64,000 nucleotides of DNA from Escherichia coli. GTDB taxonomy: Bacteria > Pseudomonadota > Gammaproteobacteria > Enterobacterales > Enterobacteriaceae. The notes beneath the pieces are model-generated. The model did no database searches. It had not been told where the DNA came from and saw nothing but the letters and a program-made list of their open reading frames with translations. The stretch lies in the NCBI RefSeq assembly GCF_003991155.1, contig NZ_CP031294.1. One strand, given 5' to 3'. The position numbers and the translations under genes are program-made. Positions 37,715-38,970 of this stretch are shown here, piece after piece (positions within the stretch are counted from its first letter, which is position 1; each line of letters begins with the position of its first letter).

Positions 37715-38970
37715 GCGAGCTGAGTTATCTGGAAAAACTGCTGGATGGGGCTGAGGTTGAGTGGGTAGCATTAAATAAATTAGCAACTTTTTTAAAAGGG
37801 AAGTCTTTACCTAAAGAAAAAATAACTCCAGATGGCAATAGATATTGTATTCATTACGGTGAGCTTTTCACTCATTATGGTCCCATAATTGACAAAGTAT
37901 GCTCAAAAACAAACCAAGCAATCAATGAGTCAATTCTATCTGAAAAAAATGATGTTCTAATGCCAACGTCAGACGTTACACCAAGAGGTTTGGCTACAGC
38001 TAGTTGCATTCAAGAAAGTGGCGTTATTTTAGGCGGCGATATTTTGATTATTAGATGCTCTGGTGTTGATGGTAGATATCTAAGTAATTTCATAATAAAT
38101 AACAAAAAAAAGATATTGCAAATGGTTAAAGGTTCTACTGTTTATCATTTGTATGCTAAAGATATAGGTAAATTACTTATCCCCATCCCTTGCCCCAACA
38201 ACCCGGAAAAGTCGCTGGCTATCCAGTCTGAAATCGTCAGGATTCTGGATAAATTTACTGCACTTACCGCTGAGCTTACCGCTGAGCTTACCGCTGAGCT
38301 TAGCATGCGTAAAAAACAATACAACTACTATCGCGACCAGTTGTTGAGTTTTAAAGAGGGTGAGGTTGAGTGGAAAGCTTTGGGGGAAATTGGTGAAGTT
38401 CGTATGTGTAAACGAATCCTAAAATCACAAACATCTTCTGAGGGAGAGATTCCATTTTATAAAATTGGGACATTTGGTAAGGAACCCGATTCCTATATAT
38501 CTAGAAAACTATTTAATGAATTTAAAGAAAAATATAGTTATCCTAAAGTTGGCGAAGTATTGATTTCTGCCAGTGGGACCATCGGCAGGACTGTTATATT
38601 TGATGGTAGGGAATCATATTTCCAGGATAGCAATATTGTCTGGATTGAAAATAATGAAAAAATAGTTTTAAATAAATATTTATTCTATTTCTATAAAATA
38701 GCAAAATGGGGAATATCTGAAGGTGGAACTATTAAAAGACTTTATAATGATAACTTAAGAAAACTTATGATACCAGTACCATTTCCTGATTCTCCTGAAA
38801 GATCGCTAGTTGAACAACAAAAAATAGTGAAATTACTGGATAAATTTGATGCTTTGACCAATTCCATCACCGAAGGTCTTCCGCGTGAAATCGAGTTGCG
38901 CCAGAAACAATACGAGTACTATCGTGATTTACTGTTCAGTTTTCCCAAACCTGAAACTATCAGTAACTAA
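37711..38970 (+). CDS. hsdS: Type I R-M specificity subunit (Type IC)
   Basis: ATGA overlap with hsdM; conserved central region [58 protein letters not shown]; two AT-rich variable TRD regions. Confidence 0.93.
38266..38301 (+). repeat. 3 x 12-bp in-frame tandem repeat (accgctgagctt = TAEL) in hsdS central region
   Basis: Read directly; EcoR124I/EcoR124II are known to differ by copy number of this repeat (2 vs 3). Confidence 0.9.

Follow-up and report, generated by a model that had tools for sequence, protein, structure and literature searches.

A third in-frame TAEL unit in the hsdS gene of an Escherichia coli phage-plasmid and its predicted effect on a type IC recognition site

The analysis of a 64,000-nucleotide stretch of Escherichia coli DNA (contig NZ_CP031294.1; referred to here as the window) identified a complete hsdM-hsdS-hsdR operon, in which the specificity gene carries three perfect copies of a 12-bp repeat encoding the peptide TAEL. 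In a reading that we consider probable, the repeat sets the length of the central coiled-coil helix of HsdS, the three-unit state would represent a recent expansion of a common two-unit allele by one unit (12 bp, TAEL) with unchanged target-recognition domains (TRDs), and the enzyme would recognise a site with a spacer 1 bp longer. The mechanism is a known one, seen here with another TRD pair. It adds no new principle, and the allele is already public.

The repeat was located in the hsdS reading frame as follows:

38263-38302, plus strand: perfect 12-bp tandem repeat CTTACCGCTGAG, 3.3 copies (Tandem Repeats Finder, period 12, 100% matches)
38266-38301, plus strand: the (TAEL)x3 coding part, read in the frame of the ORF 37711-38970; it specifies hsdS residues 186-197, midway along the central helix

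This tract has the highest score of all perfect tandem repeats in the 64-kb window. A run of 28 consecutive bases matches at period 12, for which chance is a negligible explanation (about 4^-28 per position). A sequence-only reading of the window had placed three TAEL-coding 12-bp repeats at these coding positions; the coordinates proved exact, and the units are in frame and perfect. In an AlphaFold model (mean pLDDT 76), the TAEL residues lie inside a long predicted helix (165-211), which forms the expected coiled-coil pair with a second long helix (362-409).

The operon comprises three genes, read directly in the order hsdM-hsdS-hsdR, and a candidate promoter:

36152..37714, plus strand: hsdM, type IC methyltransferase subunit, 520 aa (NCBIfam TIGR00497, 651 bits)
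37711..38970, plus strand: hsdS, specificity subunit, 419 aa, 1260 bp (translation and 7bst alignment)
38998..39027, plus strand: candidate sigma-70 promoter for hsdR (weak, consensus match of 9/12)
39092..42208, plus strand: hsdR, motor/nuclease subunit, 1038 aa (NCBIfam TIGR00348, 766 bits)

The hsdM stop codon and the hsdS start codon overlap (ATGA), and the ORFs of all three genes are intact in the window. The scores against the NCBIfam hsdM and hsdR models are well over the cut-offs. HsdM aligned with the HsdM of EcoR124 (7bst chain D) over residues 1-519 (1151 bits), and HsdR aligned with the HsdR of EcoR124I (2w00) over all 1038 residues (2274 bits). Judged by these alignments, the operon is a complete type IC (EcoR124-family) system with a different TRD pair. 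The type IC family is formally defined by in vivo complementation of the EcoR124I subunits, and the window subunits would likely complement EcoR124I in vivo, because HsdM and HsdR are near-identical. The hsdR gene of EcoR124I has its own separate promoter. The site at 38998..39027 is a tentative lead only, and the count of sigma-70-like sites in the hsdS-hsdR region is not above the shuffled expectation. A prrC-type insertion was sought between hsdS and hsdR; none is present, the gap being only 121 bp. At the 3' end of hsdM, a 12-bp near-duplication (GCTGAGCTGAAT, 1.9 copies, 37607-37629) encodes AELNAEL, which resembles the TAEL units of hsdS.

The window HsdR carries a private substitution, E774Q (codon 774 is CAG vs GAG, nt 41411). 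Residue 774 is a glutamate in 8/8 compared loci and in the HsdR of EcoR124I (PDB 4beb/2w00), and it sits past the motor domains in a helical region.

The approximate layout of HsdS, encoded on the plus strand throughout, is as follows:

aa 1-20, plus strand: N-terminal conserved region
aa 21-155 (37771-38175), plus strand: TRD1
aa 156-227 (38176-38391), plus strand: central conserved helix
aa 228-353 (38392-38769), plus strand: TRD2
aa 354-419, plus strand: C-terminal conserved helix

The N-terminal, central and C-terminal regions gave a near-identical alignment with the HsdS of EcoR124 (PDB 7bst), in which a 4-residue gap falls precisely at the TAEL tract. Neither TRD aligned meaningfully with the 7bst HsdS. 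Among the solved structures compared with HsdS, the match was to EcoR124 only. The initial assignment of the gene to the EcoR124 family (type IC) is upheld by the conserved regions and by the near-identity of HsdM and HsdR to EcoR124, and the impression that its TRDs do not resemble those of EcoR124I was likewise correct.

Outside E. coli, the relatives of TRD1 reached 50-64% at best. TRD2 is of a widespread type, with many relatives at 70-84%, including H. influenzae HI_0216-like proteins. None of these TRD2 relatives carried a specificity label; with no such label among the TRD relatives, no half-site could be assigned. A literature search by RefSeq accession and by the TAELTAEL peptide, and of ST131/ST101 methylome and phage-plasmid papers, returned no motif for this HsdS. 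Within complete E. coli genomes, five records have TRD1 but lack TRD2 (Z1323CEC0001, 0009 and 0016, all chromosomes, are examples), and about 19, many being plasmids of ~93 kb, combine TRD2 with a different TRD1. The TRDs reassort.

The exact window hsdS gene (WP_094310829.1, 100% identical) is present in four public E. coli plasmids: pYUSHP31-2, pWP5-S18-ESBL-08_2, p15ODDR and CP029421. The four assemblies are independent, with origins in Japan, China (two) and Switzerland. The three-copy hsdS of NZ_CP029421.1 is split by an IS1A element (8565-9299 of the locus) just downstream of the repeat, and its operon is otherwise 1 substitution from the p15ODDR/D9 haplotype. The two-unit twin gene is 1248 bp long and encodes WP_001293038.1, which is identical at 415/415 residues save for a 4-residue gap; its DNA is identical save for a 12-nt gap. 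When copy number was derived from the spacing between the TRD1 and TRD2 matches (613 bp or 625 bp), this TRD pair was found in two-copy form in 36 records and in three-copy form in 3 records among complete E. coli genomes. The two-unit protein was present on at least 1000 contigs in a collection of 15 billion proteins, from which the exact three-unit protein was absent. Scans of IMG/VR and metagenome contigs for the TRD pair gave four matches, all two-copy and too few for frequencies. Although three units are nothing unusual for the family, they are the rarer state for the TRD pair of the window. The suggestion that the specificity is probably new was unsupported as stated, since the allele already occurs in four public plasmids and its two-copy form is widespread.

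Positions 16152-62208 of the window were compared with plasmid pGF66.1-B (CP172196, 110.7 kb). The 46,057-bp alignment contained 6 mismatches and only one gap, of 12 nt, equal to one TAEL unit. A near-clonal plasmid pair differing by the unit showed 3 mismatches in 15.3 kb. Across the 6-kb operon, zero substitutions separate pYUSHP31-2 (three units) from pYUSHP6-3 and pMRSN346595 (two units), and the same is true of p15ODDR (three units) and D9 plasmid A (two units). The window operon differs from those of pGF66.1-B, EC17CM6 and OW849379 (two units) by its one private hsdR substitution and otherwise matches them; besides the repeat unit, E774Q is the sole operon difference from the pGF66.1-B twin. 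Three-copy alleles are found on four hsdM/hsdR backgrounds, of which the fourth is that of pWP5-S18-ESBL-08_2 and the other three have two-copy twins. The backgrounds are 46-173 substitutions apart, all in hsdM and hsdR, and hsdS is identical throughout. That the gene may be switchable, as first proposed, appears supported on an evolutionary scale, given two-copy alleles that are otherwise identical and substitution-free two-copy twins on three of the four backgrounds.

From these comparisons, we infer that the change ran from two units to three; the mechanism would be slippage of the perfect repeats or unequal crossing-over between them. The unit may have been gained several times, or one three-unit hsdS may have spread by recombination; the data leave both, because a conversion tract covering the repeat alone would look like a local gain. 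Identical hsdS genes on differing hsdM/hsdR backgrounds indicate that hsdS moves by recombination. A single origin, in which the three-copy hsdS arose once and homologous recombination in its conserved flanks then carried it onto other backgrounds, is possible though rather doubtful. It would account for a 100% identical hsdS on backgrounds so divergent in hsdM and hsdR, and it is in keeping with the occurrence of TRD1 and TRD2 with other partners. However, three of the backgrounds each have a two-copy twin without operon substitutions, so that each transfer would need a conversion tract altering the repeat alone, and the gains and losses at other TRD pairs, together with the concerted evolution of the units, show local turnover.

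To place the three-unit state in the wider type IC family, 60 records were sampled across the 1234 from E. coli that match the central region; 58 of the 60 were scorable. About 25 of these had three units and about 30 had two, with one four-unit and two five-unit genes. Alleles with 1, 2, 3, 4 and 5 TAEL copies all exist across the family. Among the protein representatives, two one-unit alleles each match a two-unit allele at 100% apart from the repeat (P0296 vs P0273 and P0330 vs P0307). A five-unit hsdS (locus L012, NZ_AP021896.1, 786-845) and a four-unit hsdS (locus L013, NZ_CM132938.1, 786-833) are present on E. coli chromosomes. The examined four- and five-unit hsdS genes are disrupted, being either annotated as a pseudogene or truncated beside an IS element. 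A divergent sublineage carries a synonymous TAEL unit, CTGACAGCAGAA, in both two-unit and three-unit forms (L019, str. 167, and L021, MLI106K4), from which it follows that units are homogenised within alleles. Read from the alignments, such homogenisation indicates repeated gain and loss of units, as in concerted evolution.

In the EcoR124 family, two units give GAA N6 RTCG (EcoR124I) and three units give GAA N7 RTCG (EcoR124II), with the methylated adenines 7 bp or 8 bp apart, respectively (reviews). The rule stated in the sequence-only reading, that two versus three units shift the spacer by 1 bp, is thus established for this family. By analogy with EcoR124I vs EcoR124II, the extra helical turn in the window HsdS would widen the distance between the TRDs by about 0.34 nm and turn one relative to the other by about 36 degrees. 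The three-copy enzyme would keep the same half-sites as the common allele, separated by a predicted spacer 1 bp longer, and the methylated adenines would be 8 instead of 7 bp apart. The specificity would be different for methylation and restriction alike. The three-copy enzyme is presumed to be active, in which case two-unit methylation would leave DNA unprotected from the three-unit system, and vice versa. Assembly-based restriction alleviation lets type IC systems establish in unmodified cells, and a unit switch would therefore be survivable.

It is improbable that the third copy is functionally neutral or leaves the enzyme defective, with unchanged specificity, relaxed specificity or no activity. 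The rarity of the three-copy allele (3/39 records, and no exact protein in the 15-billion-protein collection) would fit such a variant, and the IS1 disruption of one public three-copy allele and the private E774Q of the window HsdR were also counted on this side, as either might point to a cost or to a loss of activity. However, EcoR124II, EcoDXXI and EcoPrrI are active with three units, about 25/58 scorable type IC hsdS genes have three units, and the window has intact ORFs for all three subunits.

A programmed, high-frequency phase-variation switch, phasevarion-like and with both specificities in every population, is also an unlikely description of the locus. The perfect DNA repeats are retained across divergent alleles, two- and three-copy states both recur in nature, and R124 was historically seen switching between two specificities (Price et al. 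1989, as related in papers that cite it). However, slippage should be rare with just 2-3 units of 12 bp, each assembly holds one state, and the close plasmid relatives are mostly two-copy. Although noisy long-read assemblies can miscount tandem repeats, an assembly or sequencing artefact is hardly credible and was rejected because four independent public assemblies share the three-copy allele with the window, in a tract of only 40 bp where the difference is one exact in-frame unit.

The preferred reading, a recent one-unit expansion that would lengthen the spacer, has a setting of its own, as the window is an SSU5/pHCM2-like phage-plasmid. The neighbours of the hsd genes include metG, apbC, an S24 (HumD-like) peptidase gene, a theta (Hot-like) gene, TerB, rnhA, a Dam-like phage methylase gene, dfrA51, thyA and nrdAB. 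Close upstream of hsdM is the following pair, which accompanies the operon in SSU5-like and P1-like phage-plasmids alike:

35060..35799, minus strand: S24 peptidase (HumD-like) and DNA polymerase III theta (Hot-like) genes (ORFs; syntenic in loci L002, L003, L006, L010 and L011)

The block formed by the HumD-like S24 gene, the Hot-like theta gene and hsdMSR (35060-42208) is present both in the SSU5-like window and in locus L010, a ~93-kb plasmid that carries phd/doc and is P1-like in appearance. At locus L009, phd/doc lies directly upstream of hsdM in place of the S24/theta genes. Type IC operons with other TRDs were noted in the deposited P1-like phage genomes vB_EcoM-673R5 and phi456, and also in the Klebsiella phage vB_KpnS_p4727. 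The same operon occurs outside phage-plasmids, on plasmids of about 65-68 kb (L001, L004 and L007), where it lies next to phd/doc with IS1 and IS5 flanks and is adjoined by genes for a SMODS nucleotidyltransferase and an S-4TM effector. It was also found in chromosomal islands adjoining Ag43 (L008).

Downstream of the operon, positions mapped from the pGF66.1-B annotation place a phage-type orphan N6-adenine methyltransferase gene at about 47632-48225 and a dfrA51-type trimethoprim-resistant dihydrofolate reductase gene at approximately 51068-51544. The occurrence of dfrA51 in phage-plasmids is described in PMC12217456. A perfect 7-bp repeat (CGATAGT, 3.9 copies, 42685-42711) lies between two minus-strand ORFs 3' of hsdR. 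An iteron-like cluster of imperfect tandem repeats of 21, 24 and 42 bp (66-82% matches) at 63358-63913 may indicate a region for replication or partition of the plasmid. The tRNA and Rfam scans of the window gave no matches.

If the spacer shift is true, near-identical phage-plasmids, the window and pGF66.1-B among them, have restriction systems that do not protect against one another. This would set a barrier between sister elements and their hosts, with different phages restricted by each. The three near-clonal natural pairs of two- and three-copy alleles offer material for examining the EcoR124I/II rule with a different TRD pair in wild isolates, and are also usable for measuring the switch frequency. 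A more speculative proposal, which we consider rather unlikely, is that the TAEL tract is kept perfect in phage-plasmid type IC systems as a selected evolvability device, with recurrent shifts from two to three units (and to one or four) re-keying the restriction and methylation identity. Were this so, a phage-plasmid lineage could restrict close relatives, or phages bearing the old methylation pattern, and assembly-based restriction alleviation of the type IC kind would let the host survive the switch.

The nearest known counterpart is the EcoR124I/EcoR124II pair of plasmid R124 (type IC), which has the same gene order, near-identical HsdM and HsdR, the same HsdS conserved regions and the same 12-bp TAEL unit (CTTACCGCTGAG), and is likewise a natural allele pair distinguished only by two vs three units. 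In contrast, both TRDs of the window are unrelated to those of EcoR124, and so the half-sites differ; the operon is borne by an SSU5-like phage-plasmid instead of R124, and its two alleles were observed in different natural isolates rather than by switching in the laboratory. EcoDXXI and EcoPrrI (type IC) have three central TAEL units, as does the window; their spacers are N7 and their adenines 8 bp apart. The window operon has no prrC between hsdS and hsdR. RM.EcoST101IX / Eco067II (CCAG N6 RTTG), which is mobile on the IS1-flanked transposon Tn6602 of a pIP1206-like F plasmid, is comparable solely in being a type I system of known motif borne on an E. coli plasmid, although one copy of the window operon, on the ~65-kb plasmids, similarly has IS1 and IS5 flanks. 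Specificity is also diversified inside hsdS in the phase-variable systems (NTHi and other SSR hsdS genes, and SpnD39III). However, those act by frameshift expression switching or by TRD shuffling through site-specific inversion, whereas the window has neither a recombinase nor silent hsdS copies near hsdS, and its in-frame 12-bp unit would alter the TRD spacing only.
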